In this document: positions 12,081 through 55,200 of the stretch, piece after piece
Numbering within the stretch: the stretch's first letter is position 1
How the letters are laid out: every line of letters begins with the position of its first letter
Source: Psammoneis japonica
Lineage: Eukaryota
DNA: 64,000 bases
Assembly: GCA_008632985.1 (NCBI GenBank)
Contig: QPGO01000083.1
Coordinates: forward strand, 161,075 to 225,074
Direction: 5' to 3'
Made by a program: the position numbers and the translations under genes
The notes under the pieces: model-generated
Databases searched by the model: none
What the model saw: the letters and a program-made list of their open reading frames with translations, nothing else
Told to the model about the DNA's origin: nothing

Positions 12081-12764
12081 TTTTCATTGACCACTCAGTG
12101 GTTGGTGATTGCAGACTTTTTCGTGTCGGTCCGGCATTCGGGCAGTCGGGCAGTCGGGGGGTCGGGCAGTTGGGCAGTCGGGTTGTCCGTCTGAATTTGA
12201 AAGTGTGTCCCTCGGATTTTAGAACGGGATGGGTTGTTTAGCACAGATGAATTCTTCGGATTCGTAGAATGATCATTGAGGACATGAGAGGTCATGGGGA
12301 CATCCTAAAAAATCGATAAATTCCCTACGACGGGCACGTGGCACGGTTTTTCAGGAGAGCTCGAAAGTGCTGTAAAATTGGGATTGCCGGCGTGGCATGT
12401 TCAAAAATGTGTTCAGTTGCAAACAAAGACCAATCAATCGTGAATTCTACACGAAACAGTCACATTTCGGAAAACATGTCGAACAATGAGTGAGTTTGTG
12501 CGATGCGCTGTTATGGCGATAAATTGGAAAAAAAGAGTGTCCGTGCACCTCGCTGCAGCCCCAAAAATGGCATGAGACATCAAACAATATGACGGTCATC
12601 CGCGTCACCGGTGCGGTGGCCACGCCACTCAGCCGCCACATGCATGCAATGCGGCCCCGGCGGCAGGGCCCTACGTACGCACAGACAATGCAGCATGCAA
12701 CGGCACACACCCACCCACAAAAGCGAAAGACAAGTGGTCAATGCTCCCCGCAGGCCTGGTTCAG
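12081..12764 (+). mobile_element. Non-autonomous repeat (~684 bp), Helentron-associated (HINE/DINE-1-like) architecture, copy 1 (uninterrupted)
   Basis: Starts with TTTT. Asymmetric inverted repeat CATTGACCACT (12085-12095) / AGTGGTCAATG (12733-12743). 5' hairpin ACCACT-c-AGTGGT and internal (CGGGCAGT)n repeat. Homologous to 42128-42147 + 49064-49203 + 57855-58356. Confidence 0.65.
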
Positions 12765-16539: not shown

Positions 16540-16636
16540 TGCTTTGGCAACAGCATGCCTCACATTTCTGGAGAATGGCGTGCGTAAATTGCCTGGAGCA
16601 TGTTTCATGAAGCTCACCACAACCAGTCAAGGTCAA

Positions 16637-21898: not shown

Positions 21899-22069
21899 TG
21901 TGCGCTTGTGCCGGCCACCGTCGTGAGCCTGAGACTGTTCGCTGCACGGGCAATCGACAGACCGCACAGAGGAAGGCGGCGCGCGCGGCGGCGGCGACGG
22001 CGCGGCGCGGGAGACGGAACCGCGGGAGACTACCAGATGGCGAAGTAGGCAGACAGACGGCGTCATTCA

Positions 22070-31000: not shown

Positions 31001-34000
31001 TGAAATGAGGGCACACCAATGACAGAAGTGGCCAAAAGAGTGTCGGGGGGCCCAACGAAATGCTGTCTGAAAAGGGCAACATGAGCATCAGTGTGAGAGC
31101 ATGCACAGAAACACACACAGGGGCTGCCAGTGGGCAGCTGATGTCGGGAAGTGGGGGGTGCAGAACCAGTGGCTCATCACCTTGCCCATCCACCATTCAT
31201 CCAGATCCTCACCCACCTTGATTTGCACTGGCATCCCTCCATGGCAAATCTCAGAGGTTCGGTCAATGGCAAGGCTTGATCACACATTGGGTGAGTGCCG
31301 AGGCCCCAGGCATGTTGGAGCATTTGTTCCAAAAAGGATCCCAACCAAGAGCAGAGCAAATCATCATTGATCAATTCCAAGGCCTTGTCCCAAATCAATG
31401 TTTTCTTGCTGTTTCCATTGCTGCTGTTGCTGTTGTTGTCATTTTCATTCACAACATCTTTTTTTTCATGTTCTCCCTTGTTGTTGCTGACTTGCAGCTC
31501 TGGCAAGAGCAGGCAAATCAGTCACTCCAAGACATTGCACTCTGTGGAACATGAGCTTGTTTGGCAGATGTGTGGGACACAGCCTCATCAAACAAGCTTT
31601 GGAAATGATGGCACGCAGGTGGACCACAACAAACCAGCTCAGCTGCATCTCCGCTTCCAATGAGGCACTGGGCCGAGCAATGGCCTCATCTTCCCAACAC
31701 ATGTTTTTGCTGTTGTTGCTGTTTCTTGCTGTTTTGCTGCTGTTTTTGATGATTTGTTGTGGCTGGCCTGTTGTTGTCTCATGCATGCAGTTTGCGGTCG
31801 TTGGACTGTGCAGGTGTGCACGTGTCTGTGCACTGCAGGTAGAACATGCACAAAGTCACTGGTGAGTGAATCGACATGCAGTGGATTTTTGCTGGCACAC
31901 AATCTTCACAGTCTGCAGGGAAGATAAATTTGTGCATCATGTTCCTAAAGCTTTTAAACGCAATTTAATTTTGTTTGTGTTCGGATTGTTGGGTTGAATT
32001 CAAAAAAGTGCAGAAGACCCCGAAAGAACTGTGGAATCTGCGTGAGAAAAATTTTCATTTAACGGTCTGAACAGAGCTGTCATGAAGTGCTTCTCAAAAA
32101 ATCTTTAGGTTGAGTGCAGCAAAGAATCTGCTGTTGCCAAAACAGATCTGCTGTCGGCAAACCAGGTGCCCATCCTTTGCACACAAACAACGGCAGCACA
32201 ACCATTGCCCAACAACCACCATTCACTGATCTGCCAGCTGGCATTTCAAGACAAGATGAAAGCAATTGGACAATGTTTGTGCACCATGTTCATGGGTCAA
32301 GTTGGGTTTCTTGTTGTTGCTTGTTGTCATGTCATTTTACAATGTTTTGACCCATGCCATTTTCTTCTCTGAAACTTCTGCTCACAAGCCATCCACCAGC
32401 AGCTTTTCCTGCAGGGTGTGGCCAGTTGCACAATCACATCAAACCCAAACATGCACAACCAACTGACCCCACCCTGGCCAACTCATGTTGTGCACATGTG
32501 GAACAAACAAATGAAAGCTGCAGACCTGCACACACCTTTTTTCTTGACCTTGGCTGGCTCTGCGGAGTTTGTGAGTAAAACTTGTGGGCATCATCCAGCT
32601 GTTGTGGATCTTTAGCTGCCAAACAACATTTGTTGAAGGCCAGAGCACTGAGGCCCTCACTGTGCAATTGATCTGCACTGTGCATCCACACTCCAGACAA
32701 CTGCACTGATTTCTTTGGGCTTCTCTGAACAAAGCAGCAAACATCACAGTGAAAACTTGAGAGTGAAAAACAGAAGAGGCCATTGCTTGAGAAAGACAGG
32801 CATGAAAGAGTGTGGAGTGTGGCCGTGCCCTGCACCGCATCCAGTGGTGCTGTCATTGGAGTGAAAAATGGTGGAAGAAAAGGAGGAAATGACCAAAAAG
32901 GCTTGATGCAAAGGTCAAACACAAACCCAATGAAGAGCCAACAATGGCTGGTGCTGTTGAGCCATCAGAAGCCAAAAAGGTTGCCTTTCCAGAGCTCAGT
33001 GACACCTTGTTTAATGTGGATGATGACCCACATTTGCTGAGGAAGCATTTCTCCACAAAAAGTGAGTGCACACCACTGCAACATTTTTGGTCTGTCTTGT
33101 GACTGTCACAGGACACAATGGTTGCAACGACACAAGGTTTGGGCAGTCTTCTCCAACAAATGCCAGGTGCTGCTGCCACCACCACCAATTTTGACAATGA
33201 CTCATCTGCTGCCACCCATGGCATGTCAGCAATGATGACAAATGATGATCAGTGCAGCAACAATGACCCAACCTCAATGACCCCACTGCAATCCTGCTGC
33301 ACTTGATGTGCACGACATCATCTCTGCAACAATGCACACAATCAGCAGCCACCACAGCCCAGGCAGCCATGCCCACAGATCACCAAGTTCATCTTCTGAC
33401 CCTGCAGCAATGACAAAGACAGCCATGGGCCATCATCCAGTCACAATGAGCAGCAACGATGATGAGTGACAACCACTGTGGCAAAAAGATGAGTGATCAA
33501 CAGACACCAGAGACTGCAGTGGGTCAAAAAGAGCAGGGCTTCTCTTTGTCTTGAGGGCTGAAGCATCTTTGAACCCACCATTGCAGCCACAACTGAGCTG
33601 ACAAGAGCAATGAATGCTGCTGCGCATGGCTTGGATGCACGGGCTTGGAGAATGGCTTGATGTGACGGCTTGATGACAGCTGTGGATTCTGCACAATTCA
33701 CAATCCAGGAATGGAGGGGCATGGTTGAAGCAGGCTGGAATTGCCCGCCGGCTGACATCTGAGATCCCCCATGCCTCATGCAGCATCAACACATGTTTGC
33801 AACAGTGCAATCTTTCTGAACTGGCATCAATGTGACTGTTCCGGGAAATGCACCCCCTCTGTTGGGGCAATCCACCTGCTCAGGAGAATGGCAAGCCAGA
33901 TAAAACCAGTTTTTTGCACATGTTTCACCTGCATGGTCATCTGGAGAAAATCCCATTTTGCCCAAAATGACATCAGCAACACAGAGAAGGGTGAAGCAAC

Positions 34001-34190
34001 ACACATCATTGGCTGTGAGCCACCTCCAATGGCTTTTGGGGGAGCAGCTTGTGGTGGGAATCGTCGTGAGCCACTTCAAACAGCTCATGGCTGGAAATGA
34101 CTTGTGTTTTGTGTCTTCAAACAAGTGAACAATCGGTTTCCAAATGAGACAATTTCCAAACAAATTCTGGCACGTCCAACAGATGACACC
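22070..34190. other. 12-kb block of heavily decayed repeats, depleted of TpA and CpG
   Basis: TG/CA-dominated sequence with only scattered TA. Dense overlapping Cys/His/Gln-rich, almost Tyr-free ORFs. No element could be confidently classified. Confidence 0.7.
23355..23457 (+). repeat. 44-bp direct duplication (period 59)
   Basis: TGTAAAATCTAAACAAAAGGAAGAAAGGCAGAGTGTGAAGAAAC versus TGTAAAATCCAAACAAAAGGAAGAAAGACAGAGCACAAAGAAAC. Confidence 0.85.
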
Positions 34191-34646
34191 TCATAGACGG
34201 AAGAAAGCACACATGCCCATGTCTGATTTGCGCGCCCGCCACGTCGTCGGTTACAATCTTTGACTCATTCGACTGTTATGATCTTGCGCCGCTCACAAAA
34301 TAAATCGCACCTCTTTGTCTTTGCCGCCTCTCTTCCCGCGCATTGAACGGCATCGTCACTTGTGCGTTATAAGATTGAAATTGCATCCGGTGAATCCTAT
34401 GCCGTTGCTTGGGAGCGAGAGAAACAACTTGATCACAAGTATTAGAGACCTCCAATATCATAGTAGTTACGGAACAAAGAGGTGAGGGGAGAGATCTCGT
34501 TTTCGTCTGAAATCTGCGACCCCGAAACATGCTTTTCCGCGCTTCTTTATTTTTTTGCCACGACCGTTTTTGTTCGTATATAAACGCTTTTACCTAATCC
34601 TGAGTCCTGCATCTTGTTGTGCCCTTTAGCTCATTACATATTACAA

Positions 34647-37028: not shown

Positions 37029-37759
37029 GTATGTGTCAACATGCGCGGCTGGATCGAGACTCGATACTCGCGGATTGGCTAAGCACCTTGGGTTTGCTTA
37101 CATGATTTTACTGTATGCGGGCGTCTCAAATCCGGTTACAATCGTGCGTAGTTTCGGACTTCTAAGGAATGAATCGACTCAACTATTTGAATTACGAACC
37201 AAGTAGAGTCTCTCCCTCGCTCGCTGCAAATTTTTGTCATTGTATTGCATCCTTTTACTAGCGAGGGGTTCCAACCAATGTTTTCCCGGATTGTTCGCTA
37301 TTTCTCTCGTTCGCATCGTCTAACTTTTGCGTTTCGGCAAAAATTTCCGACATCTTCGACACAGATGTGGCCTGCCTCGCTGTACCAGAATCTGCTGCCT
37401 CCGCACCAAGCTTTCCACTGCCCACATCCATCAGTTGCCTGTGAGTGCTAACGACGGTGCCAGACGTTGTCAAAATGTTGACAGCATCTTCCATTTCATC
37501 CCCACCATAAATAATTTCTAGTACTTCCGCTTCGCCGTTCATAATGCCACTGCAAGTGAAGTAAACACAGCGAAGAACTTAGCTAATGTGGAATGACAAT
37601 AAGCAATAGAGGAGTTGACAGCGCTGGCGACTGTTGCCAGGAAGGTCCTTCCAAGAACTCGTGGAAGCCAAGCACACCTTGAAGTGCCTACGCGTGCACC
37701 CTCCAAGCCGTTCCATCCCAGGGCTGAACGGCCACGCCCCATGTTCTTGGGAATTGTTG

Positions 37760-40215
37760 AGACTGCACCGAGGCCATGTTGGATTTTGCTGTCCCGCTGC
37801 AAGGAGCATCACATCACAACCCAGTGACACTGCATGGACCAGTCACCGCGGCATCCAGTCACGACCTTCCAACGGCCATCATCACACACTGTCGGGCACA
37901 AGGAGCTGCAGACAAAGGCCAGATTCAAGTCACTCATTGTGTGTCAACCCATCCCATGACTGTGGTGGGACCGGCTCAGCCCTGGGACAACAAAACCTGG
38001 ACCATTGCAAGAGATCTCACGCGTGGACAGTTTGCGCTCATGGAATTTGGGGACAATGCTTTTGCCCTCACCAATCAGGGACCATGAGTTCCCACACTCA
38101 CGACACGCCACAAATGCACATCACAGCAGCACCCAATGGGCTCCACCCTCACATTTCAGCAAACTCACCCAAAGCAGTTAAAGTGAGAACCTGAAATGTC
38201 ATGTGTGTGTGTCTCAAGTTTGTCCGTCGCCTCCTGCCAACACCGCTGCAACCCAAGGATGCATGCACACAGACTCACAGGGCAGCCATTGCCACATGTG
38301 TGCAGATTCATGGGGCTGCCATTGCCGCCAATGAAGTCACTGCTGTCACCCCTTTGTTGGGTTGTTTGCATGTTGCTTGCTGTGCCACACAGAACTCCCA
38401 ACTTCAGTCAGCCATGGCACAAGCTTGGCTTGCCATGGCTTGGCCTCCAAACAAAGCACTTGCTCATTTCATTGATTTTAAAGTAGAGCACAACATCCCA
38501 GGTTGCAGCGGGCATGTGCAGTTCACTGGCCAGCAGTTCCAGCCCATCGTCATAGTGATCGAAGAACTCATGGTGGAGCAGCATCAACAATGGCAAGATG
38601 CCAACAAAAGAGCATGCACCTCAACACACGGAAAAGCACTCAGCAAGTTCTGGGGGGATTTTGGAGTCACCAAGATTCTGTGCTTGTGTCAAGTTTACAA
38701 CAAAGCCACCCTGCCACCATTCTGGGCAGCACTCACCTCAGCACAGAAGACCAGCTGACTGTTGGTCATTCAGAATGCAATTGATGAGCAGCGACAAGTC
38801 TTTGCCATGCACTTTGACTCACCCGTCACCGTCAACCTTATCACCAAGCTTGTGCAGCTGGATTTTTCTGGTTGCAATCAAGAAAAACCAACCCAGGGGA
38901 GCCAAGAGCTCTTTTCTGCATTGGCCAACTAGCCAGCGCAGCCACAACCCCCAGTTGTGGAGAGTTCAAAATGGCGGTGCATCCACCCTACAAATTGTGG
39001 ACAGGATGTTGCTGCTGCCATTTGCAATGACAAACCTGGTGAGCATGTAAAAATGACACCGTTGTTTTGCATTGTGAAGGACTCAGTTACCCTGCACATT
39101 GTCACAGCGGCAGAGGTGATTGGAGTTGACTCCTCAGGAGCCAACAACATCCCAGGCATTGTTCACTTTGCACCTGCAAGCACCAATGAGCCCCCATCAC
39201 CGTCGCCAACAAGCCATGGATGTGTGCTGAGCCAGACACCAATCCAAATGCAAGCACATCAAGCTTTTGCAAATGACGCAGCTGACATGGTTGAAAAAGG
39301 CTTCTGGACCGTTGTCCCATGCTCCAAAGTGCAAGACACCCCAGGCCTTGGGTTGAGCCCGACTGGCATGGTTCTGCAACATGGCTGCCAATCGTGCCCC
39401 ATCATGGGCTGCACCTTTTGTGGTCTCAACCCTGCAACACAACCAAACACCACCATGGAATCCATGCAATTTGGCCAAGCCTTCAATTGCGTGTCATGCC
39501 ATGTCCTCCTTGCCAACCCCAGCAAAGGCAAAGTCTGCCTCATGAAGACAGACATCTCACTGACAGATGCCACAGGATGCATCTGGCTCTGGATGGAGCA
39601 CCTGTCCTGGGGGTGATTTTCCTTGGCTTGCCAGGAGAGCCAACAATTTTGACATTGTGTGCAATGCCCAAGCACTGCCACATCCGCTTGAACCTTTGCT
39701 TCAGAGCAGACCCAAAAAGCACCAGGCAACAACAACACCTGATCCGACACACTCTGTCCCCATCCCGGCCCATCCCAACCCGCACCTGCAGCACCGCCAT
39801 CGCCGCCATCTCCTGCACATGTGGACACACATGTTGACAACTTTGTTGGAGCATTGCAGGGTTCATGCCGGGCATGCCAAAACATCCATCGCATCATCTC
39901 ACACGTGCTGGGGCTGGATGACATCTTTCTGACACTCAACTCTGCTGACCCGGCCACCCGCAAGGAGCCTGCATCATCAGTTGAAAAGCTCTGCCAGTGT
40001 GATGCCACATGGTCTGCGCACAGAAAGAAGTGCTGGGATGGATCATTGACACTCAATCAATGACCATCAGACTCACGCTGCACCGGCGTGAGTGCCTTCT
40101 TGCTGCGCTGCACAAGGATTTTCCCCTTGCACTCAAAGACGTGCCACCGCCACTGACTTCCACAAGCTCTTGGGTGAATTGCGCTCTCTCGGCATTGCAG
40201 TTCCCGGGCTCACGC
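37760..40215 (+). mobile_element. Decayed, 3'-truncated Ngaro/DIRS-type retrotransposon (gag-like + RT)
   Basis: DMVEKGFWTVVPC..LSPTGMV..MQFGQAF..LLANP..VCLMKTDI, then HVDNFVG (YVDD site, 39830-39841), RKEPAS..KL..DATWS, LGWIIDT, LLGELRSL.IAVPG. These match the pattern of diatom tyrosine-recombinase retroelement RTs. No recombinase gene seen. Confidence 0.75.
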
Positions 40216-40568
40216 AGTTGACACTCAGAGCTTCAAAAGAACCTCCAGCACACCAACATGAGGCCGCCCGGCGAAGAAGAAGATGGCGACGGTGCGACCG
40301 TGCGCACAAGCCCGTCTTTTCCTACATGCAGTAATCCCTAGCCCTTTCGCAATGCGGAGGTCTGCCAATCCACGACTCTATTCTTCGTATTCCAGCTATT
40401 CGCGTCGTCGCTAAATACTACTCAACAACCCAAACATATAGCACAGGGCGTATCTTTTAATGCTCTTAACAGCTACGACTAGCGTAGAGTTGAAGGAAAG
40501 AATGTGCCACTGAATCGCCTGGCTCTGCTTGTTGCACCAACCTGCGGTGGTTTTCATCCACAGCTTCA

Positions 40569-41992
40569 TCATAGCTCACAAATATCCAACGCGTCATCTG
40601 AATCTCCATCCTTTGCTACCGTGTATTGGGCCTTAACTTTTCTCGGATTGGGCCAGAATTCTTCATCGTAATAGGGGCCCATCACTTCCACCACCTCCTC
40701 ACCATCACCTTCGTTGTACTCATCGTACCGTTCACGGTGTAGCTTTCGCATCATTTCAACGTGCTTCTTGTATGCTTTCTCGTATTGTTGGTGGGCCTGC
40801 TCACCCAAGACAGGAGAATGTTTAATAATGTGGCCACAAAAGGACAACATGTCCTGGGTGGTGTGATTGCGCGTGATTGGGCGCCCGCACAAGGTGAGAT
40901 CCTCAAACACACAACGAGGGAATAGCAAAGGAGACGGATCGTATTTACCTGGTGATAGCGTTCTGGAAAGGAAAGATGGGCATTCCAGACTTCGTCGATC
41001 GCCTTCGACGGGGAATACTTCTCTGAGTTCCAATCCTTGGCCTCCGTTTTTATCGCTAGAAACATTTGATAGTTTTTGACAGCACGTTGGGCCCACTCCA
41101 TTCCGAGGTCTGGGAACCGGGCAGCCATCAAGTTGGTCAATGCACCCCAATCTGGTTCCGTGTCTCCACCCATGCGAATATTCATCGCAGTCGGGGAATT
41201 CTCCGAAAGAACAGTGTATAACTTTATCTTGTAGTCTGCTCTCCATGTAAGTTTATGAGAAAGCTCAAATTGACTATCCGTGTCGCAATCATGGAAGGAC
41301 ATGGCAGAGGCGTTAGCTTGGCCGCGAGCATAGACAACCAACACCCCACCAGCATTCTCCTCCCAATCATTGAGACGTCTAACACATGCTCTTCGTTCGA
41401 GAGGATCACGAGGAAATGCCTCGAACGGGAAGTATTCTCGGACTTCCCCCGCATCTAAGTCCTCCGGGTACTTCTCGCGTCGGGGTCGATCAGATCTGAC
41501 AAGCGACGCGCACACATTGTTCCAAACAGTGTTTACTTGGAGGTGGTAGTCCAACTTGAAGTTGTCAATGGGAGAATTGGCATCTGGCCTGTTGAACGAG
41601 GCGGTTAACTCCTCAGCATAGTCTCCCTTTTTGACAACCGCAACGTCGCGGATCGAATCAGAAATGCCATCGTCCCGTTGTCCGTCATTCATAACGTCGT
41701 GATTGGGATCAGCGAAGAGGACTCTGTTAAAAGTTGCCTTTCCCTTCACATTGGTAGTGCCTGCTGCCAACGTAAAGCGCCCCGTAATTGGATCTTGGAG
41801 CATGGGAACTTGCAATGTGCCCACCATACCGCCCTCTGGAATCAGTTGCGTTTTGCAGCTCCGAAACTTGAACTCTACGGTGACGCGGTTAAGATCACCT
41901 TGAGCCCGTCTCACACGTTTTATAGCGGGTCCATCTCTTTTCCCCGTCCGTTTAGCTCCGGCTGAGCTAACAGTCTCGGGAAGTCTTGACAT
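40569..41992 (-). CDS. Protein with C-terminal GRDP/DUF1399-like domain, 2 exons
   Basis: AVKNYQMFL..SPSKAIDEVWNAHL..PERY. In-frame intron 40854-40948, then DMLSFCGHIIKHSP..YDEEFWP. Confidence 0.72.
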
Positions 41993-42147
41993 GGCCGCGT
42001 TTTTCAATGCGGTGTTAGTCGTTAGTCGCTTCTTATCAACAGTAGCCTATGGTTGTTGTAATGGCGGTATGGGTGTCGCCACTTGGCATTCGCAGAACAA
42101 AGGCGGGTGAAAGGCACGACGATTTGATTTTCATTGACCACTTAGTG

Positions 42148-42323
42148 TGAAGAATTTACCATGTGGTTTTATCGGAAATAGTGTTTAGAACTGTATATTT
42201 GGCGATTCGGAACGGGAAGACTCCATCCGAGATCTACTCACAATCTTAGAAATAGTAGCACGATGTTACAACGATTTTCTATAACTTTACTCTCTAGCAA
42301 GCGACTACGGGGTAATTTATTCA
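42148..42323 (+). repeat. 5' LTR (retains 18 TpA)
   Basis: Ungapped match to 48888-49063 with 21 substitutions. Confidence 0.95.
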
Positions 42324-42989
42324 CTTTATCAGAGCCATCGACGTATGTAACGACAGTGGTAATGATTGCTACGCTTGCGAACGATTCGCAATACGACCAT
42401 TCGTTCCAACTTGTCAGAGATGACATGAAAACATCGACGAACGTGAGACGACGTTCGTGCTTGACGAGTATGTAACTCCCAGGGCTAGTTCGGCCGTAAT
42501 ACTTATGGATAACAAAAGTATCGACTGTCCTGATGTGTTTTATGAGCGTAAATACGCGGACACAGAGCGCAAAATTGGATCTGGGACGCCATTTCCATAC
42601 CGAAGTTATCTCGGAGGCAACTGCGTGGCGATTTGAAATCGCCGAGTGAGCATATAAACGCGATATAATTGATAAATTATATATATTTAACCTCACTATT
42701 GGTCAATGTAGACCAGGGAACGAGCACGTTGCCGATGATCGGCACATGCATTATACGATCACGTAGATTGTAACAGTAGCCGTTGTATCTGAATTCCCAT
42801 ACAGATATTTTAATCCACGTCGATTAAATATAAACAGCTATCTGTAGACACGTTGATCGTAGTTATAACGATTACTTTTATGCAACGGTGGAAAAGCGAT
42901 ACGAAGTTCGCGCACCTCACTCACTTTCCGTACACAACCACACAAAAGTTTGCGAGAACATCAAATTACACCGTTCGTAACCACAAACC

Positions 42990-44479
42990 ATGGCGGCAGT
43001 CGCTGCAGCGATGCGTGCTGCCCACACCCGACTGGGGTTTACCACACAAGCAGCCGCGGCTTTAACGATGAGCAGGGAATCGACTCAGTCGATGAACTGC
43101 GTCACCTCGACGACCATGAGGTCGAGACCTCATGCAAGGTCATTCGTCGCCCAGGAGGGGCTGCGGCAGGGAATCCGCCAGCAGGAGGGAACGCCCAACC
43201 CAACCTAGGGATGTCAGTCCCGTTGTGAGCCGAGACGAATCTCAAGCTCGCCGCGCATGCGGCTCGTCACTGCGAGCGCATGTCGCGGACGTTGCGAGCT
43301 GTCGACATCAACCTTGCACCAGTGCGAGGCTGCCGACACTTCCGTGCCACAGAGGAGACCTGCGCACTGCCCAAAACGCTGCCAACGATCATCGAGAAGG
43401 ACTGGCCGAAGACGATCGAGTCGATTCAGGAGCATCTGCGGGCATGCCGAGGCGAGACGAAAACACCGCCAGCGCACGTCATCCGTGACAACCAGGAAGT
43501 GACTCCCAAGGCCGATGATCCAGCCACCAACTGCGACAATCCCATCGAGGAGATGATCGCAAGGGCCCCGCATTTTGCTGCTGGGAACGACCCTCAACCT
43601 GCCGAAACGTTCACGGCCGACAACATCAAAGTGTGGGAAATCATTGCAGGCATTGCGCGAGAACACACGAGTTGGGCCTGTGTCAAGTCGGCCCAGAGGA
43701 GTCAGGATGGCAGGACAGCCCACCTGAACCTGTGCAACCATTTCTTGGGCCCCAACAATGCAGATGACATGGCAAACGCCGCTGAAAAGCGCCTTGCCAG
43801 TTTGTCCTGCCACGGGGAAAAGCGCAATTGGAACTTCGAGCGCTGCGTGTGAGTTCATGTCGAACAACACGCGATTCTGGATGGCTTGACCCAGCATGGT
43901 TATGCCGGGATCGACGCACAATCCAAGGTCCACCATCTCCTTGCAAGTGTCAAGGACTCGTCGCTTGACTCAGTCAAGACGCAGATCATGTCTAGCGCAA
44001 CGTTGCGCAACGACTTTGATGCTTGCGTCATTCTGTTCAAGGACTTCATCAAGCAGTCCAAGCCGGACAATGACGCGAAACGTCTTCGTGTTGCGGCTCT
44101 CAAGGCTGGGAAGCGTAGACGAGAGGCTGTCATTCATGCCGATGACGTGGAGGACAAGTGCCACCCTCCCAAAGAGCACAGCAAGCTGTCTCCCCAGGCT
44201 GGGAAGAAGCTCAAGTCGCTGCGCAACACACATGGTGACACGAAAACCGGCAAGGCCACGGCGGCCGGTGACGCCAAACAGATCAAGGCTCTGACCAAGA
44301 CGGTCACTGCCATTTCAGCTCAGACAGACGATTCATCCAATGAAGGCAGCAGTGAATCTGAAACTGAAGAGCCAATGAAGCCTCCGGCCACCAAGCAGGA
44401 TCGAAACCGCGGCAACAAGGCGTTGATTCGCAAGGCTGCTCGCAAGCACATCCCCAAGGCTGGACATTGCAAGGAGTGA
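42990..44479 (+). pseudogene. gag: Copia gag, disrupted
   Basis: MAAVAAAMRAA..RLGFT, a frameshift near 43063, then EQGIDSVDEL..VIRRPGG and GEKRNWNFE. In-frame TGA at 43226 and 43850, compatible with CGA>TGA. Confidence 0.8.
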
Positions 44480-44485
44480 CTGCCA

Positions 44486-47400
44486 ATGGTGGCTGTCATG
44501 CGGCTCAGTCCGCTGCAGACTTTGCGCTCAACCCAGACAAAGGTCAAGGGACCATCGAACGAAGAGTCTCGCACGGACATCGACAGTCATGCAGACACAA
44601 GCGCACCAGGCAAGCACGCTTTAATTTTACTTGACCATGATGGGCCAGCAGACACAGAAGGGTGCGACCCGACATCAGGTGCCAGCAAGTGTCTGTGCAC
44701 CGTCAGTGGAGCTGTTGCTTGTGCCGATCCTCAGACGGGCCACCCACACGTCTTGGTTGTCCACCAAGCAGTCCATGTGCCACACCTTGAGCATGGCTTG
44801 CTGTGTCCAATGCACTTGTGGCTGAATGACGTGGAACTTTCATTAAAACCGAAGTTTCCACTGACAAAGCCCAATGACAAGGAACATGCGATTGTCGCCA
44901 AGGATGCAAATGGCACTTCATTGACCACACCTTTGGACCTGGAGGGAGTCTCGAGCTGCTTCCCCTCCAGTGTCCCGACTTTATCTCAATGCGAGGATGC
45001 GGCCCAAGAAGGGAGCGTGTGTGAACTCATGCATGAGTCCCCGGAATGGGACCCCACCTCCTCTGATTTCCACGCTGGGGAAGATGCCATGACCGATGCT
45101 CTTGGCAGAGTGCATGAGACCGGGGACGACACGCGTCCTCATGTGCACATTATGAGCACGAAGCTCTCACGCACTGCAGCTCAAGAGACCTCAGACTCTC
45201 TGGGGAATCAGCCGTTGCGTGACATTTCCAATGCATGCGATGACCGTTTGCTGCTGGCATCCATGAAACTGTCTTCGCTCAAGACAACGAAGCGCGGCTT
45301 CAAGGTTGACGCTGAACGTTTGGCCGAGAATTGGTCCATCAGCCTCAAGGATGCTCAGAACACTCTCAAGGTTACGACACAGTGTGGAGCTAGGACGGTT
45401 CTACATCCTGCGCTGTCGCGACGTTTCCGCACCAATGATCGACAACTGCAATGCAGGCGTGTCTCAAAGGAGATGCACTCCAATGCCATGTTCTCCTCTG
45501 TCAAGTCTAGGCGAGGGAATGTGTGCGCGCAAGTGTTCGCAATGTCCAATGGATGGGCACGCGCTCATCCATTGAAGTCAAAACGTCCAGCGCACGAGGC
45601 GTTGTCATTGCTCTTCGTGCAAGAAGGCGTGCCCCATGCTGTGCCAGTGGACGGGGCGAGAGAAGAGACAATGGGGCAGTTTAGCAAGAAAGCCAGGGAG
45701 GCTGATTGCCATGTGAGACAAACTGAACCATGTGCCCCTTGGTCCAACACCGCAGAGGGCACAATTCGTGAACTCAAGCGAGGTGTTGGGCGCAAGATGG
45801 TTAAGTCACAGGCCCCAAAATGCCCATGGGATGATTGCCTGGAACTGGAAGGCCTTGTTGGGTCTAACACCGCTCGAAGCATCTATGAGCTTGACGGTGA
45901 AGTCCCGGAAACTGTTGTGTCCGGTCAGACGGCTGACATCTCGCACACATGCGAACTAGGCTGGTACGACTGGGTCATGTTTCGAGACACGGCAGTCTCA
46001 TTTCCCGAGGACAAGGAAGTCCTGGGGCGACATCTAGGTCCGAGCAGGGATGTGGGCCCAGCTGTGATGGCCAAGACACTCAAGGAGAACGGACAGGCAG
46101 TCCATCGCTCATCTTGTGGGGCACTGACTCCCGAGGAGCAGGGACACAAGACGCACATGGCGTCACGTGAAAAGTTTGATAGGTTGACAGAGGTCAAGCT
46201 AGGCCCTGGTGTGACCGTCGGGGACTTTGACGACCCTGACGCAATTACTCCCACCTTCGAACCGTACGAGGATGACGAGGAACAGGATGTTCCGTCTAGT
46301 GCCTCCGATGAGGATGACATGCCAGACGAAGCCTGCGATCAACATGTCAACGCAGAAGCACTGCCACCTCACGGGGACATGGAACAGACTGGGACAGTGA
46401 AGCGACGTAAGCTCAATCCGGACGGCACACCTGCCGGACGGGCTAACCCAAACCCAATGCTTGACACTCGTGTGCATGAGGTCGAGTTTCCTGATGGACA
46501 GGAAGCAGAATTCGCGGCGAATGTCATCGCTGAGAACATGTTCGCACAGTGTGACAATGAAGGCAACCAGCACTTGTTGCTAGATGCAATTGTTGATCAC
46601 AAGACTGACGGGCATGCTGTCAAGAAGGAGGACGCCTTCATCCAAGACAGTCGAGGACGTCGATCCATGCGCAAGACTGCCAAAGGCTGGCATCTTTGCG
46701 TGCAATGGAAAGACGGACCCACATCTTGGGAACGACTGTCCGACTTGAAGGAATCTAACCCAGTAGAAACAGCAGAGTATGCCAGGGCTAGATCTATAGA
46801 GGATGAACCCGCATTCGCATGGTGGGTTCCCTTTACCTTCAAGAAACGTCAGCAAATCACAGCCGCTGTGAACAAGCGATGTCACAAGCGCACTCACAAG
46901 TGCGGGATGCGCATTCCCAAGACCCATGAAGAGGCAGTCGAGATCGACAAGGCTAACGGCGACCGCTTGTGGCAGGACACCGTAGACAAGGAGATCGAAG
47001 TCGTTACGAAAGCCTTTGAGATTATCGACGATGACGATGAGCTTGTGGGTTACCAGCATGTCCGCTGCCACTTGGCCTTTGATGTCAAACTACAAGACTT
47101 CAAGCGGAAGGCTCGCCATGTCGCAGGGGGACATGCCACTGAACCTCCAGCGACCCTGACGTACGCAAGCGTCGTCTCCCGTGAAAGTGTGAGGATTGCC
47201 TTCGCTCTGGCGGCTCTAAATGACTTGGAGGTTAAGGCTGCGGACATTGAGAATGCCCATGTCACCGCACCTAACAGCGAGAAGATCACTGCAACTCTAG
47301 GACCTGAGTTTGGACCCAATGCTGGGAAGCGTGCCACAGTTGAGCGCGCATTGTACGGATTGAAGAGTGCAGGTGCATCCTTCAGGAACCACTTGGCATC

Positions 47401-48619
47401 GTGCATGCGTCATCTTGGTTGGGAACCATGTCTGGCTGATCCCGATGTGTGGATGAAGGCACAAGTTCGACCAGATGATGGGTTCCGTTGCTGTGCCTGT
47501 GCACTGTTGCATGTCGACGACGTGCTTGTGGCACACCACGACGCTACGTCAGCGCTCAAGGAATTGGACCGATGCTTCAAGATGAAACCCGGATCCATCG
47601 GTGACCCTGAGATGCACCTCGGGGCGAAGATCCGTGAAGTGCAAATGCCGAACGGTGTCTGCGCGTGGAGCATGAGCTCTGGCAAGTGCATCCAACAGGC
47701 CATTGGAAATGTCGAGGGGCACCCAGATGAGTCCACTCCCGGATGGACGTCACCACGCAAGGCAACGGCTCCGTTTCCACGCGACTGTCGACCGGAGCTC
47801 GACATTGCGCCAAAGCTCGATGCAGAGCGGGCTCGATTTTACCAGTCGCAGGTGGGAGTCCTGCACTGGACAGTGGAACTCGGACGAGTCGACCTCACAG
47901 CAGAGGTGTCCAAGCTTGCCTCATTCCTTGCCATGCCTGGAGAAGGTCATCTCGGCGCAGTCCCACATGTGCATGGGTGCCTTGAGAATGGACACAATGC
48001 CACGTCAGCGTTCGATCCGACGTGCCCGGATGTCGACATGTCTGACTTTAAGGAATGTGATTGGCAGGCGTTCTGCAGGGACGTTAAGGAGGCAATTCCG
48101 CCGAATGCACCAGAAGCTCTGGGCAAGGACATTGATCTGCGTCTGTTTGTAGATTCAGATCATGCGAATGACAAAGTGACGAGACGCTCTCGCACTGGTC
48201 ATTTCATCCATTTGAACATGGCATTGATTGCCTGGTTCTCCAAGCACCAGAGCACCATCGAGACTTCAGTCTTTGGTGCTGAGTTTGTGGCTGTGAAGCA
48301 GGGCATGGAAGCTTTGCGAGGCCCAAGGTGCAAACTCAGGATGATGGGAGTCCCGCTCAGCGGACCATCACACATTTGTGGGGACAACATGTCAGTTGTC
48401 CACAACACCCAAAGCCCAGAGTTGACTTTGAAGAAGAAGTCTAACTCCACATGCCACCATGCCGTTGGGGAGTCGGCAGCCATGGGTGAGTCCCTTGCAG
48501 GACACATTAGATCGGAATGCAATCCGGCTGATCTTGCGACTAAGATCATGTGCGGTGGCATCAAGCGAGATGGCCTCGTTGGTGTGATGCTACACGACAC
48601 ATGTGATGATCAAGGATGA
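44486..48619 (+). pseudogene. pol: Copia pol (protease-integrase-RT-RNase H): open frame but missense-riddled
   Basis: IDSHADT, VDGAREE, KARHVAGGH, ADIENAH, ALYGLKSAG, LLHVDD, FVDSDHA..RRSRTG, GDN, NPADLATK. Many expected Tyr read as Cys or His. Confidence 0.93.
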
Positions 48620-48887
48620 ATGAAGAATGAACAGTCGCTTCCTCGACTGACTCTTTTTCTGTTTCTCCTTGCATCCAGCAAGCATGTCAGCTTGCACTGG
48701 CGGGCATGTTGGCTCGCATTCCTTCCATGTGCTTCTTGGAAGGGCACAGTTTTAGACTGGCACCCTTTCCCAATTTGGGTTTCAGCAGGTTGTCAGGGTT
48801 TCCTTGTCACTTGGTTGTGGCTAAATGCTGTCGGAGTGCAAATTGGATCAAGCTGATTCAGTGTCTGCTTCAACGACTTGAGGGGAC

Positions 48888-49063
48888 TGAAGAATTTGCC
48901 ATGTGGTTTTGTCGGAAATGGTGTTTGGAACTGTGTGTTTGGCGATTCGGAACGGGAAGACTCCATCCAAGATCTGCTCACAATCTTGGAAATGGTGGCA
49001 CGATGTTGCAACGATTTTCTGTGACTTTGCTCTCTGGCAAGCGACTGCGGGGCAACCCATTCA
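48888..49063 (+). repeat. 3' LTR (0 TpA)
   Basis: Follows the PPT, ends TTCA and is followed by the AGTG TSD. Confidence 0.95.
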
Positions 49064-49203
49064 AGTGGTTGGTGATTGCAGACTTTTTCGTGTCGGTCCG
49101 GCAGTCGGGCAGTCGGGCAGTCGGGCAGTTTGTCCGAATTTGAAAGTGTGTCCCTTGCATGGATTTTGAAAGGGCATGGGTTGTTCAGCACAGATGAATT
49201 CTT

Positions 49204-52200
49204 GGCAATTTTTTCATGTTCGTGGCCGGTTAAAGGAAAAGAGAAAAAAAGAGGGGAATCAACCGTTGAACACACACACACAATTGACCATGCAACCATG
49301 GCCAGAGTTGCACTGGCTTCTTTTGATCCAGGGTGGTTGCTGCAGGTGCAAAGAGTGGGGCACATTGCAGTTGCAGGAGGGTGACAATGTGGCACTGAGT
49401 GTGTGCCACCAGGCTGAGCAGCCCAGCTTGGGTGTCAGCCAAGCCCTGCCAGGCCAGCTGCCCTGGCTCCAGCTGCTCTTCCCAGTGTGCGTGAGTTGTT
49501 GAAGGAGCACCACATTGACTCAAAGGCTGTGTTTTAAGTGGGGCAGAGAGAAAAAACTGTTGTCTTGGCTGGTGCTTGCTTCAGACCCTGCATCATGAGC
49601 GCAAGCTCCTCTTGAGAAATGAGCGAGAATGGCCATTTTTGGCGCCTCTCTTTGGTTGCCCACTTGGCATTGCCAACAAATCTTGAACCAAACTTCACTC
49701 ACAGTTTCTTCACTCTTCAACCACAAAACCAGGTTCAACTTTTTGTTGGCTTCTTTGTGGCTGGGGTCACTGTTGCAGGCACAAATGGTGGGCACATGCC
49801 ATGTGGCTGCTTGGCAACAAGAGTGTGATGCCAAGCATGTGCTGCACACCAAGGAGCCAAGCAGCCCAGCCCAGCTTTGAATGGAGCCCCAGGACAGCAG
49901 CCAACTCTGGGTGATCTCAGCATGGTGTGCTTGTTTGGGCTGTGCTGCACTCACCCCACAGTGCTCTGTGTTGTGGTGGCTTGTTGTGCAAGCCGTGTGG
50001 CTGAAGAGCCAGCAGCCAGCCAGGGCCCATCTTGCAAAGGCCACAAATGTTGACCCTGTGCAAAGCTGTGTGAGGGGGCAGGCACAGGGATTTGCAATGA
50101 TGGCTTCACAGCCATTGGCCCCAAGTTGGCATTTGATTGGGATCCAGTGCTGAGGGGCTGTGAAGTGTGGGGTTGGGAGCCCAGCCAGCTCGCACTCTCT
50201 TTGTTGTCACAAAGTGCTGCCACAGCTGTCTTTGCATTGCAGCCAGCCAGGTGCGGTTGACCCCAAGTTGGCACTTGATTTGGAGTGACTGCCAAGGAGC
50301 TGTGAAGTGTGGGGTTGGGCAGTCCAGCCAGCTCACACTCTTTGCTGACAGCAGAAAGCACTGTCGCAGCTGTCCTTGCGCACACATGGCCAGAGCAGCC
50401 TTGGCACATCCTGCTGACAAAACTGACAAAGACAGCGACTCTTGTGGTTGAGCCACTCAGCACGCAGGAGATCTGGGCACACTCCTGGGAAGTCAAACAG
50501 GAAGGAGGGCTGAGCATTGCCGCCAGTGCCAGGCACAAATGTCAGCTTGTCTTGAGAGAGATTCGAGCCCACACAGCCCCGCGTTGGGCATCTTTGCTGG
50601 CAAAATGGAAAGCATTCTTGAGCACATTCTGGCATGTGGGCAGCACTGTCACCAAGAGGGCTGCTCTGCAGAGGAAGAGGGAAATGGGCAACAACATTTT
50701 GCAAGAACTGTTTTGTGTCAATGGTCGGGTGGGATGTGGCAGCATCATCTGGACTTTGATGGAGCATTTGGCGGACAAAGCTTGAGCACAGAGAGTTGTC
50801 CACTCAAGCTCCACAAGTGGCACTTTCCAAAGGTGACACCACACATGGGCCATGTGTTCATGCATCAACATGCCTCAAGCTGCAAGTCACACAAAAAAAC
50901 CACCACCAACCTTTCAGCCAACCACCATCATGGACAGAACAGGTCAAGAGGTTCAAAACAAGAGCGATTCATTGACTCTCTTCTGGTTCCATGCATTCAA
51001 GAGCTTCTTGTCCTTCTCAAATGTTTGTTGTGCATTGTTGTCTCTTTTAATTCAAGTGCAAAGAGGAGTCACTTTTCTTGTTTCCATCTCTTGAGATGTT
51101 GTTGGTTGTTGAGTGATGCAACTTTTGTTGTCACATTTTTGGAAATGTTGGCAAACCCGATCACTGCTTGATTGTCAACCCATTTGCTGTTTTAAGTCTC
51201 CATGGCATAAAATGCCATAATTCCAGAGCCCTCAATTGTTTCATCAAACGCAGTGCTTTGAAACACGTCCAACATCAACTCGACTCAGTTGAAATCCCAG
51301 TTTGTGGGCGATGAAAAATCACGAATGTCAAACAAATGGCTACTTTCGACATCAAGATCCCCGAGTTCAATCCAAATGTGACGGTACGCCTCACAGCTTA
51401 TGGCCATGACACATACAAGCATGCCTCATTGTCATCGCGTCGAGCACTCGTATCGAAAATGCCGATAGATCAAAGTTCAGGAAAAGGATGGAATACAAAT
51501 TCATTTGTGAATTCATTAGTGGCATTGGCGTAATGATATTTACGGCAGAAGCAATCTAAAATCCTTATTCATCATTGACATTTCTGTATTGCTCAGATTT
51601 TGAAATCTGACCACTACCGTTAAGCATTTAGCTGTCTTTGTATGGAAGTGGAAATGACACTTAACGATTTACACTAACCATTTAGCTTTCTTTGTGTCGA
51701 AGTGGAAATGACACTTAACGATTTACACTAACCATTTAGCTTACTTTGGCTCGAAGTCAGACAAAGAGATTGGGCTATGGGCTTGTCGTTAACCAGCCAC
51801 GAGCATGAAATCTTTACCGGTGGCGGCAATTTTTTCATGTTCGTGGCCGGTTAAAGGAAAAGAGAAAAAAAGAGGGGAATCAACCGTTGAACACACACAC
51901 ACAATTGACCATGCAACCATGGCCAGAGTTGCACTGGCTTCTTTTGATCCAGGGTGGTTGCTGCAGGTGCAAAGAGTGGGGCACATTGCAGTTGCAGGAG
52001 GGTGACAATGTGGCACTGAGTGTGTGCCACCAGGCTGAGCAGCCCAGCTTGGGTGTCAGCCAAGCCCTGCCAGGCCAGCTGCCCTGGCTCCAGCTGCTCT
52101 TCCCAGTGTGCGTGAGTTGTTGAAGGAGCACCACATTGACTCAAAGGCTGTGTTTTAAGTGGGGCAGAGAGAAAAAACTGTTGTCTTGGCTGGTGCTTGC

Positions 52201-55200
52201 TTCAGACCCTGCATCATGAGCGCAAGCTCCTCTTGAGAAATGAGCGAGAATGGCCATTTTTGGCGCCTCTCTTTGGTTGCCCACTTGGCATTGCCAACAA
52301 ATCTTGAACCAAACTTCACTCACAGTTTCTTCACTCTTCAACCACAAAACCAGGTTCAACTTTTTGTTGGCTTCTTTGTGGCTGGGGTCACTGTTGCAGG
52401 CACAAATGGTGGGCACATGCCATGTGGCTGCTTGGCAACAAGAGTGTGATGCCAAGCATGTGCTGCACACCAAGGAGCCAAGCAGCCCAGCCCAGCTTTG
52501 AATGGAGCCCCAGGACAGCAGCCAACTCTGGGTGATCTCAGCATGGTGTGCTTGTTTGGGCTGTGCTGCACTCACCCCACAGTGCTCTGTGTTGTGGTGG
52601 CTTGTTGTGCAAGCCGTGTGGCTGAAGAGCCAGCAGCCAGCCAGGGCCCATCTTGCAAAGGCCACAAATGTTGACCCTGTGCAAAGCTGTGTGAGGGGCA
52701 GGCACAGGGATTTGCAATGATGGCTTCACAGCCATTGGCCCCAAGTTGGCATTTGATTGGGATCCAGTGCTGAGGGGCTGTGAAGTGTGGGGTTGGGAGC
52801 CCAGCCAGCTCGCACTCTCTTTGTTGTCACAAAGTGCTGCCACAGCTGTCTTTGCATTGCAGCCAGCCAGGTGCGGTTGACCCCAAGTTGGCACTTGATT
52901 TGGAGTGACTGCCAAGGAGCTGTGAAGTGTGGGGTTGGGCAGTCCAGCCAGCTCACACTCTTTGCTGACAGCAGAAAGCACTGTCGCAGCTGTCCTTGCG
53001 CACACATGGCCAGAGCAGCCTTGGCACATCCTGCTGACAAAACTGACAAAGACAGCGACTCTTGTGGTTGAGCCACTCAGCACGCAGGAGATCTGGGCAC
53101 ACTCCTGGGAAGTCAAACAGGAAGGAGGGCTGAGCATTGCCGCCAGTGCCAGGCACAAATGTCAGCTTGTCTTGAGAGAGATTCGAGCCCACACAGCCCC
53201 GCGTTGGGCATCTTTGCTGGCAAAATGGAAAGCATTCTTGAGCACATTCTGGCATGTGGGCAGCACTGTCACCAAGAGGGCTGCTCTGCAGAGGAAGAGG
53301 GAAATGGGCAACAACATTTTGCAAGAACTGTTTTGTGTCAATGGTCGGGTGGGATGTGGCAGCATCATCTGGACTTTGATGGAGCATTTGGCGGACAAAG
53401 CTTGAGCACAGAGAGTTGTCCACTCAAGCTCCACAAGTGGCACTTTCCAAAGGTGACACCACACATGGGCCATGTGTTCATGCATCAACATGCCTCAAGC
53501 TGCAAGTCACACAAAAAAACCACCACCAACCTTTCAGCCAACCACCATCATGGACAGAACAGGTCAAGAGGTTCAAAACAAGAGCGATTCATTGACTCTC
53601 TTCTGGTTCCATGCATTCAAGAGCTTCTTGTCCTTCTCAAATGTTTGTTGTGCATTGTTGTCTCTTTTAATTCAAGTGCAAAGAGGAGTCACTTTTCTTG
53701 TTTCCATCTCTTGAGATGTTGTGGTTGTTGAGTGATGCAACTTTTGTTGTCACATTTTTGGAAATGTTGGCAAACCCGATCACTGCTTGATTGTCAACCC
53801 ATTTGCTGTTTTAAGTCTCCATGGCATAAAATGCCATAATTCCAGAGCCCTCAATTGTTTCATCAAACGCAGTGCTTTGAAACACGTCCAACATCAACTC
53901 GACTCAGTTGAAATCCCAGTTTGTGGGCGATGAAAAATCACGAATGTCAAACAAATGGCTACTTTCGACATCAAGATCCCCGAGTTCAATCCAAATGTGA
54001 CGGTACGCCTCACAGCTTATGGCCATGACACATACAAGCATGCCTCATTGTCATCGCGTCGAGCACTCGTATCGAAAATGCCGATAGATCAAAGTTCAGG
54101 AAAAGGATGGAATACAAATTCATTTGTGAATTCATTAGTGGCATTGGCGTAATGATATTTACGGCAGAAGCAATCTAAAATCCTTATTCATCATTGACAT
54201 TTCTGTATTGCTCAGATTTTGAAATCTGACCACTACCGTTAAGCATTTAGCTGTCTTTGTATGGAAGTGGAAATGACACTTAACGATTTACACTAACCAT
54301 TTAGCTTTCTTTGTGTCGAAGTGGAAATGACACTTAACGATTTACACTAACCATTTAGCTTACTTTGGCTCGAAGTCAGACAAAGAGATTGGGCTATGGG
54401 CTTGTGGTTAACCAGCCACGAGCATGAAATCTTTACCGGTGGCGGCAATTTTTTCATGTTCGTGGCCGGTTAAAGGAAAAGAGAAAAAAAGAGGGGAATC
54501 AACCGTTGAACACACACACACAATTGACCATGCAACCATGGCCAGAGTTGCACTGGCTTCTTTTGATCCAGGGTGGTTGCTGCAGGTGCAAAGAGTGGGG
54601 CACATTGCAGTTGCAGGAGGGTGACAATGTGGCACTGAGTGTGTGCCACCAGGCTGAGCAGCCCAGCTTGGGTGTCAGCCAAGCCCTGCCAGGCCAGCTG
54701 CCCTGGCTCCAGCTGCTCTTCCCAGTGTGCGTGAGTTATTGAAGGAGCACCACATTGACTCAAAGGCTGTGTTTTAAGTGGGGCAGAGAGAAAAAACTGT
54801 TGTCTTGGCTGGTGCTTGCTTCAGACCCTGCATCATGAGCGCAAGCTCCTCTTGAGAAATGAGCGAGAATGGCCATTTTTGGCGCCTCTCTTTGGTTGCC
54901 CACTTGGCATTGCCAACAAATCTTGAACCAAACTTCACTCACAGTTTCTTCACTCTTCAACCACAAAACCAGGTTCAACTTTTTGTTGGCTTCTTTGTGG
55001 CTGGGGTCACTGTTGCAGGCACAAATGGTGGGCACATGCCATGTGGCTGCTTGGCAACAAGAGTGTGATGCCAAGCATGTGCTGCACACCAAGGAGCCAA
55101 GCAGCCCAGCCCAGCTTTGAATGGAGCCCCAGGACAGCAGCCAACTCTGGGTGATCTCAGCATGGTCAATTGTGTGTGTGTGTTCAACGGTTGATTCCCC

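Follow-up and report, generated by a model that had tools for sequence, protein, structure and literature searches.

We analyzed a 64,000-nucleotide stretch of the genome of the diatom Psammoneis japonica (positions 161,075 to 225,074 of contig QPGO01000083.1, assembly GCA_008632985.1; called the window below, with its own numbering) and found a Copia-type long terminal repeat (LTR) retrotransposon, located at 42148-49063, that has been mutated along most of its length and spared at one end. The spared end faces a divergent minus-strand gene, whose ATG at position 41992 is 156 bp from the start of the 5' LTR. Beyond a sharp step in gag, the dinucleotide TpA has been lost almost to saturation, by change to TpG or CpA. 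It is plausible from the arrangement of the locus that the promoter of the gene, or open chromatin around it, shields the spared end. A first-pass annotation of this DNA, made from the sequence alone, had reported that the 5' LTR and leader keep TpA and CpG while TpA disappears within gag, and that the spared end lies about 150 bp from the ATG of the gene. Both statements, and the coordinates given with them, are confirmed by our measurements.

The 5' LTR and leader together (42148-42989, 842 bp) contain 72 TpA (observed/expected ratio (o/e) 1.01) and 62 CpG (o/e 1.69), whereas the remaining element (42990-49063, 6074 bp) contains 60 TpA (o/e 0.20) and 370 CpG (o/e 0.80). The difference in TpA density between the two parts has a Fisher p value of 1.7e-32. 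Counted in 100-bp bins, TpA occurs 4-13 times per bin up to position 42978 and 0-2 times per bin beyond it. TpAs in highly mutable sequence contexts are intact up to 42931, and the next four (42967, 42978, 43040, and 43063) would have had a joint survival probability of about 0.002 if exposed, as calculated with the survival ratios seen in the window. Mutation is first evident from a T at 43117, a position at which other copies of the element have a C (CpG to TpG), followed by a TGA at 43226 in place of CGA and a tyrosine-to-histidine replacement at 43256. This places the step in the interval 43041-43256, 50-270 bp within gag and ~1.07 kb from the gene ATG. The CpG o/e also drops along the element with distance from the gene, from 1.7 in the leader to 1.1-0.8, 0.6, and finally 0.4.

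The direction and the timing of the change can be read from the LTR pair. At integration the two LTRs are identical, since a single template gives rise to both. Here, 21 of the 176 aligned positions differ, comprising 16 changes of TA to TG, 2 of TA to CA, 2 of T to C, and 1 of CG to CA. All 18 TpAs of the 5' LTR are changed in the 3' LTR, 16 of them to TpG and 2 to CpA. Only 2 of the ~122 positions outside TpA and CpG differ; these are the two T-to-C changes, both of which directly adjoin one of the TA-to-CA changes. The GC content thereby goes from 0.375 in the 5' LTR to 0.483 in the 3' LTR. Because the LTRs differ at every TpA, and because the flanking host repeat at 49064-49203 contains no TpA at all, the mutation must post-date integration. 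The changes in the 3' LTR are strongly one-stranded (16 TA to TG versus 2 TA to CA; the corresponding ratio of cysteine to histidine in gag-pol is 20:15), and a TTTA-to-CCCA run suggests occasional spill-over to neighboring bases. Across the mutated DNA we found no evidence for long one-strand tracts: TG/CA over-dispersion in 200-bp intervals was similar in mutated and unmutated DNA (chi2/df 1.56 and 1.31, respectively), and a runs test on the cysteine and histidine footprints gave P = 0.17.

An independent record of the direction is preserved in the polyprotein. We compared it to 40 relatives, namely the matches longer than 1250 amino acids among the first 60 of 120 listed. Tyrosine makes up 0.6% of the residues in the element versus a mean of 3.7% in these relatives. 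In 26 alignment columns, tyrosine is shared by at least 80% of relatives; the element has cysteine in 13 and histidine in 7 of these, the residues expected when TAY codons become TGY (Cys) or CAY (His). For other residue types, mostly 6-17% of the conserved columns are changed, with isoleucine (41%) and arginine (30%) being higher. In gag, for which 27 of 72 related metagenome loci could be aligned, 11 conserved tyrosine columns read histidine (5), cysteine (4), phenylalanine (1), and tyrosine (1). Pooling 50 conserved tyrosine columns of gag-pol at a 60% threshold yields 20 cysteine, 15 histidine, 9 tyrosine, 5 phenylalanine, and 1 leucine. The relatives themselves carry no such signature: coding TpA o/e in the 72 loci ranges from 0.44 to 0.91, with no locus below 0.44, compared with 0.25 in pol and 0.09 in gag of the present element, and all 120 related proteins have at least 2.27% tyrosine. 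In other repeats of the window, one copy has TG and the other CA at 8 and 13 sites, double differences that are expected if the ancestral dinucleotide was TA or CG. Codon usage as a cause of the TpA loss is ruled out by the conserved tyrosine columns, by the TpA baseline of the relatives, and by the LTR pair. Together, these sequence comparisons indicate that the loss of TpA is a real, directional mutation to TpG or CpA.

The element sits in an older repeat, an uninterrupted copy of which (copy 1 in Table 1) serves as a reference for the insertion site. The insertion is flanked by a 4-bp target duplication, AGTG, which is shorter than the 5 bp that are usual. The two flanks are contiguous in copy 1, and both ends of the element therefore belong to a single insertion. 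Homology to copy 1 stops at about position 42123, and upstream homology over 41960-42122 was unconvincing. The repeat terminus occurs with three distinct left flanks (at this locus, in copy 1, and in a loose-end consensus in run X1). The order of events was thus that the host repeat arrived 130 bp from the ATG at 41992, and that the Copia element later inserted 25 bp inside it. The first-pass annotation had counted the stub of the host repeat left of the element among the sequences that escaped mutation, based on CTTAGTG at this locus versus CTCAGTG in copy 1. This difference is real, but it proves little, since it represents a single informative site, since the TTAG context often survives in mutated blocks, and since other copies also read C. 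The repeat as a whole is an unclassified mobile sequence of ~5 kb with two copies in the window (12081-17400, and 42123-42147 joined to 49064-49203 and to 57855-~63000). It has long stop-free frames without a Pfam match, and its second copy is split by the Copia element and by an 8.65-kb tandem/inverted structure (49204-57854).

We investigated whether sequence context or a repeat partner could account for the escape, comparing 39.7 kb of mutated with 18.2 kb of unmutated blocks after setting aside the 5' end of the Copia element, the TpA-rich islands described below, and an assembly gap. TpAs that survive in mutated blocks are mostly found in the context YTAR (TTAA, CTAA, CTAG, and TTAG), with TTAA at 0.69 and CTAA at 0.43 of the unmutated density. 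In contrast, RTAY is nearly eliminated (ATAT 0.01, ATAC 0.011, and GTAT 0.025 of the unmutated density). This suggests that the mutator prefers T-A-pyrimidine on whichever strand it acts on. In the spared 5' end, 21 of 72 TpAs are RTAY, and only ~8.5 of the 72 would be expected to survive if exposed; sequence context thus does not explain the escape. The LTRs offer a second comparison, as the same original sequence has 0 of 18 TpAs mutated at the 5' end of the element and 18 of 18 at the 3' end, 6.7 kb away. Homology alone consequently did not decide targeting, in line with the earlier proposal that a perfect repeat partner is not sufficient for mutation. That proposal had been contrasted with repeat-induced point mutation (RIP), which usually hits both copies. 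Here, one of two identical LTRs is indeed untouched, yet the contrast is weaker than originally put, because the LTR measures only 176 bp and RIP requires longer duplications. A piece of the leader from another copy (aligned to 42441-42611) differs at 22 of 171 positions, a difference count that suggests that the leader is mutable elsewhere. Taken together, these comparisons argue that chromosomal position, rather than sequence or homology, decided targeting.

The step in the Copia element is one of several in the window. Genic DNA has a TpA o/e of ~0.5 and a CpG o/e of ~1.0, and it alternates with mutated blocks in which TpA o/e is 0-0.15 and CpA/TpG o/e is 1.5-2.5. Most of the five TpA-poor blocks are also nearly devoid of CpG, with CpA and TpG doubled. 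Nine sharp block edges are each found 160-1072 bp from an open reading frame (ORF) end; for edges other than the Copia step, this distance is 160-670 bp. Several edges are bordered, on their unmutated side, by CpG-dense, partly microsatellite-like patches (CG runs and ACGT-type repeats). TpA is lost and CpG kept in 12500-17500 and 43064-48200, unlike in 22100-34100 and 49200-51000. The young Copia element retains ~80% of its CpG, with TpA mostly gone. None of the blocks in the window has lost CpG and kept TpA, and the loss of TpA thus appears to be faster than, or independent of, CpG decay.

In the explanation that we favor, a young Copia-type retrotransposon would have entered an older, already mutated repeat, 25 bp inside its end and abutting the promoter of the gene. 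After insertion, a process acting at the DNA level would have struck the element to the right of ~43.1 kb and continued through into the flanking repeat, turning TpA into TpG or CpA. Such changes correspond to A-to-G on either strand and may most simply be explained by adenine deamination. The 0.9 kb nearest to the gene, made up of the stub, the 5' LTR, the leader, and the first ~75 bp of gag, would have been spared. The step would then mark the limit of a chromosomal domain subject to both the mutator and a slower CpG decay, a limit set by position (~1.07 kb from the ATG) and most likely via active or unmethylated chromatin at the gene promoter. We favor a domain edge because the spared end faces the gene, because other blocks stop short of ORFs, and because CpG declines away from the gene. 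In the full chain, in which the edge is held off by active, unmethylated chromatin at the promoter, we infer the enzyme, the chromatin state, and the role of the promoter, and we put the chain forward tentatively, giving it slightly less than an even chance of being correct in all its parts.

Several observations weigh against this reading. The remaining block edges may mark no more than the ends of transposons. Within the mutated tandem repeat, three TpA-rich islands of 0.7-0.8 kb (51.1-51.9, 53.8-54.6, and 55.2-56.0 kb) have no recognized gene adjoining them, and gene proximity is thus not the sole route of escape. There is no gradient of TpA loss towards the step: depletion is stronger in gag, which adjoins the edge, than in the middle of pol, the location of 7 of the 9 conserved tyrosines that the element has kept. 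The step falls within ~100 bp of the start of gag, where base composition also shifts, a coincidence that our explanation leaves unaccounted for. Finally, none of the contigs listed spans 42177-43100 to link the mutated interior with the unmutated 5' part, and the run X1 unitig that leads in from the gene side breaks off precisely 30 nt inside the LTR, which implies other LTR copies in the TpA state that could have served as conversion donors or confused the assembler.

The latter two points bear on two ways in which the half-mutated state could have arisen secondarily. The element may once have been mutated up to its left end, with ~0.9 kb of its 5' part then overwritten by gene conversion or recombination from an unmutated family member. 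Such members seem to exist, as judged from the break of the unitig and from a run X2 contig with a TpA-state LTR end beside a different flank, and a near-identical donor is plausible given that the LTRs differ only by signature changes. A sharp step without a gradient would also fit the end of a conversion tract. However, this would have brought the mutated domain to within ~130 bp of the ATG, nearer than the other edges come to their ORFs, the stub has retained its TpA (though this site is weakly informative), and nothing points directly to a tract, e.g. variants specific to a donor. We regard conversion as unlikely, if the most serious of the alternatives. Alternatively, the assembler could have fused the gene side, comprising the flank with an LTR and leader in the unmutated state, to the private mutated interior of another copy, somewhere in the ~50 nt at 43065-43116 that contain no diagnostic site. 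The assembly is a draft with 282 N and with perfectly identical 2.6-kb tandem copies, the contigs listed leave the critical interval unspanned, and at several interior positions all contigs compared differ from the window. Against such mis-threading, both outer junctions fit a single insertion, with AGTG duplicated and the flanks contiguous in copy 1, so that a chimera would require the host repeat to have received an insertion twice at the identical base. In addition, the private letters of the window are found in run X1 at a depth of ~30-90 at 10 listed positions (e.g. 43117 and 43226). This makes an assembly error rather improbable. Two other joints in run X1 deserve mention here: one from 42147 to 49066 (left flank to right flank, depth 24.9) may represent an insertion-free allele or another copy of the host repeat, and one from 48947 to 42216 (3'-LTR to 5'-LTR state) may come from a second half-mutated copy elsewhere.

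The remaining alternatives locate the cause in the element, in its life cycle, or in the data. The AT-rich and CpG-rich 5' promoter region of the element might by itself resist the mutator, or the silencing that recruits it, regardless of the gene. The TpA-rich islands are likewise AT-rich, of similar size, and without a known gene beside them, and the compositional shift at the leader/gag border lies near the step; yet the identical 3' LTR is fully mutated, and the leader fragment of another copy, by its difference count, was probably mutable where it resides. We consider an element-intrinsic escape to be improbable. An apparent loss of TpA could also be produced without any TpA mutation, either by a RIP-like process that created TA from TG and CA in the 5' end, or by a systematic miscalling of modified bases in methylated domains. 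The LTR pair alone gives no direction and the sequencing platform is unspecified, but conserved tyrosines have become cysteine and histidine, relatives have a normal TpA baseline, and a natural 176-bp LTR without any TA is unlikely. Moreover, the mutated letters also appear in the X1 contigs, whose accuracy is shown by 0 differences over 1678 nt, and copies differ mainly by transitions (475 places versus 79 transversions). Jointly, we judge these two possibilities to be very improbable, and a RIP-like reverse direction in particular is ruled out by the LTR pair, the tyrosine columns, and the relatives' baseline. APOBEC3 and ADAR edit RNA or cDNA prior to integration, with both LTRs left alike, and ADAR favors a 5' U. 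Deaminase-type, context-specific hypermutation of a retroelement is common to these systems and to the present element, where by contrast it occurred after integration and reached flanking DNA. A scenario in which an ADAR- or APOBEC-like activity edits the RNA or cDNA, graded along the reverse-transcription intermediate, could draw on the resemblance of our signature to the 5' U preference of ADAR, which is discussed in a recent preprint for a similar signature (Mettrop et al., bioRxiv 10.64898/2026.01.13.699255). Such editing before integration is contradicted by the LTR asymmetry, as LTRs made from one template should match, and by the mutated state of the flanking host DNA, and we regard it as extremely improbable.

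We compared the process to known systems of repeat mutation. RIP, as found in ascomycete fungi, changes C to T mostly at CpA, thereby creating TpA and AT-richness, and affects duplicated partners. Both processes generate dense, context-specific transitions that kill repeats, in sharply bounded blocks beside intact genes. The direction is opposite, however, with TpA destroyed and GC raised in the diatom, and only one LTR of the pair is hit, the short LTR being a weak test of this last point. A literature search for TpA-directed hypermutation of foreign DNA matched a single 2026 preprint on a rhizarian alga and found no report from diatoms. In mutation-accumulation lines of this alga, Bigelowiella natans, the mutation rate of two integrated viral regions is ~1000 times that of the remaining genome, and 230 of 231 changes there are A to G or T to C, all on TpA (Mettrop et al., bioRxiv 10.64898/2026.01.13.699255). 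As described in the same preprint, the large region is single-copy, comprises 186 kb, and runs ~21 kb past the annotated virus, and an ADAT2-like deaminase is proposed, though undemonstrated. The present case shares with this description the GC-ward A/T-to-G/C changes almost exclusively at TpA, with TpG or CpA resulting according to strand, the restriction to regions of foreign and integrated DNA, and the lack of a need for repeats. Specifically, 18 of the 21 LTR differences and 35 of the 50 tyrosine columns reflect A to G or T to C at TpA, and the changes are confined to blocks of foreign or repeated DNA in which TpA depletion is paired with CpA and TpG enrichment. That mutation does not depend on pairing is consequently not new, since the preprint reports the same signature on a single-copy region. 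The two cases differ in host and target, a chlorarachniophyte with viral DNA there and a diatom (Stramenopiles) with retrotransposons and unclassified repeats here. They also differ in extent, as the nucleocytoplasmic large DNA virus (NCLDV) region keeps 3.3% TpA according to the preprint, compared with near-saturation at 0-3 TpA per 500 bp in our window. Co-occurring CpG decay, a T-A-Y preference, and a sharp edge inside a single element further set the diatom locus apart; the terms 'diatom', 'CpG', 'trinucleotide', 'context', and 'boundar' are absent from the main text of the preprint. The phenomenon is thus a variant of a very recently described kind of mutation, in a new lineage. The CpG decay, in turn, appears ordinary, because diatom transposons are CpG-methylated, as documented in Phaeodactylum (Hoguin et al. 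2023, PMC9998398). Deamination of 5-methylcytosine would account for the loss of CpG to TpG and CpA in the same blocks, and the CpG-dense unmutated edges resemble unmethylated islands. It cannot, however, account for the loss of TpA. With ~80% of CpG kept in the young Copia element and TpA mostly gone, the two processes run at different speeds.

The coordinates of the main features are summarized in Table 1. The element can be assigned to the Ty1/Copia group (diatom CoDi-like) by its RVT_2 domain (PF07727, E 1.6e-10) and by direct TG...CA LTRs with a target duplication. There are 1618 relatives of its polyprotein at E<=1e-3, of which several are assigned to Fragilaria crotonensis and the closest shares 64% identity; relatives of gag-pol fall at 54-66% identity. 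The reverse transcriptase catalytic motif YVDD reads HVDD. The gag ATG at 42990 is out of frame with the polyprotein, and other copies have an extra C behind 43065 that joins the two frames. The leader belongs to a multi-copy family, with a summed contig depth of 672-1235 versus 62 for the gene. The sequence TATCAGAGCC is a putative primer-binding site, which we take to resemble the primer site for initiator tRNA-Met; tRNA gene and Rfam scans of the window returned nothing, and the motif is found in 0 of the 72 related loci.

The divergent gene encodes a protein with 87 homologues at E<=1e-3 and 50 at E<=1e-10 (best match 54% identity, E 2.6e-95), and a Pfam search with it gave no match. In a protein-atlas comparison the divergent gene scored below 0.8, and the carnitine acyltransferase described below yielded no informative taxon. 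Its dinucleotide content is normal (TpA o/e 0.55, CpG o/e 0.95). A run X1 contig of 4575 nt matches the window over 40500-42177 with 0 differences at a depth of 62, consistent with single-copy DNA. The TpA-rich islands lie in a 2.62-kb unit with 2.2 tandem copies (99.9-100% identical) and one inverted copy (91%). They contain 54-bp tandem repeats and a short ORF at a GC content of ~0.42, and the island of the inverted copy has a few TA-to-TG or TA-to-CA changes, as read from the alignment. Pfam searches with 48 ORFs and 7 more from mutated blocks assigned no credible family to the repeats of those blocks. Elsewhere in the window, a host ORF for a carnitine acyltransferase (6934-8409) has best matches that are all from diatoms (top overall 69% identity; best named match Synedropsis cf. 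recta, an araphid pennate diatom, 63%). The 282 N of this draft scaffold form one gap at 63109-63390.

Table 1. Features of the Copia locus and of the surrounding window (window coordinates)
Feature	Position	Strand	Remarks
Divergent host gene	40751..41992	-	413 aa from ATG 41992; conserved protein, family unassigned
Gap between gene ATG and host-repeat end	41993..42122	.	130 bp; presumed core promoter and 5' untranslated region (UTR); TA 7, CG 11
Host-repeat stub (repeat terminus)	42123..42147	+	Matches 12081-12100; AGTG duplication at 42144-42147
5' LTR	42148..42323	+	176 bp, TG...CA; unmutated; TA 18 (o/e 1.05), CG 9 (1.46)
Leader	42324..42989	+	Unmutated; TA 54 (o/e 1.00), CG 53 (1.73)
Putative primer-binding site TATCAGAGCC	42327..42336	+	Begins 3 nt past 5' LTR
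gag start	42990..43063	+	ATG 42990; unmutated state; TA at 43040 and 43063
gag	42990..44479	+	TA 6 (o/e 0.09), CG 116 (0.93)
Interval holding mutation boundary	43064..43256	+	Last TA of dense run at 43063; first mutation marks after
Hypermutated gag-pol, single frame	43064..48619	+	TGA stops at 43226, 43850, 44477; 1-bp frameshift near 43065
pol	44480..48619	+	TA 52 (o/e 0.25)
3' UTR	48620..48887	+	TA 2
Polypurine tract GAGGGGA	48880..48886	+	Ends 1 nt ahead of 3' LTR
3' LTR	48888..49063	+	176 bp, TG...CA; fully mutated; TA 0, CG 8
Host repeat, continuing past element	49064..49203	+	AGTG again at 49064-49067; matches 12097-12256; 0 TA in 140 bp
Host-repeat copy 1	12081..12764	+	Uninterrupted; insertion-site reference
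Five TpA-poor blocks	1900-4500, 11115-17500, 22073-34190, 37690-40320, 43064-64000		Edges sharp to ~100 bp
CpG-dense edge patches	4500-4560, 11060-11118, 17497-17521, 21977-22097, 34230-34250, 40265-40313		

The locus represents a natural experiment, in that the LTR pair reports the direction of mutation, its timing after integration, and a rate at least tens of times above background, and the half-mutated element is useful for studying how this mutator finds its targets. A broader possibility, which we hold more loosely than the reading of the locus itself, is that diatoms possess a fast genome defence in which DNA adenine editing erases TpA, preferentially in T-A-pyrimidine, across silenced transposon domains and outruns CpG decay. 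Its reach would be set at about nucleosome resolution by chromatin boundaries around active genes rather than by repeat recognition. A single transposon copy could then be inactivated by editing over 6 kb, with its promoter end on the gene side staying pristine and possibly active. If the edge is indeed a chromatin boundary, targeting would become testable, and the boundary would explain how genes within transposon-rich DNA stay safe, and transposon ends adjoining genes would keep intact promoters.

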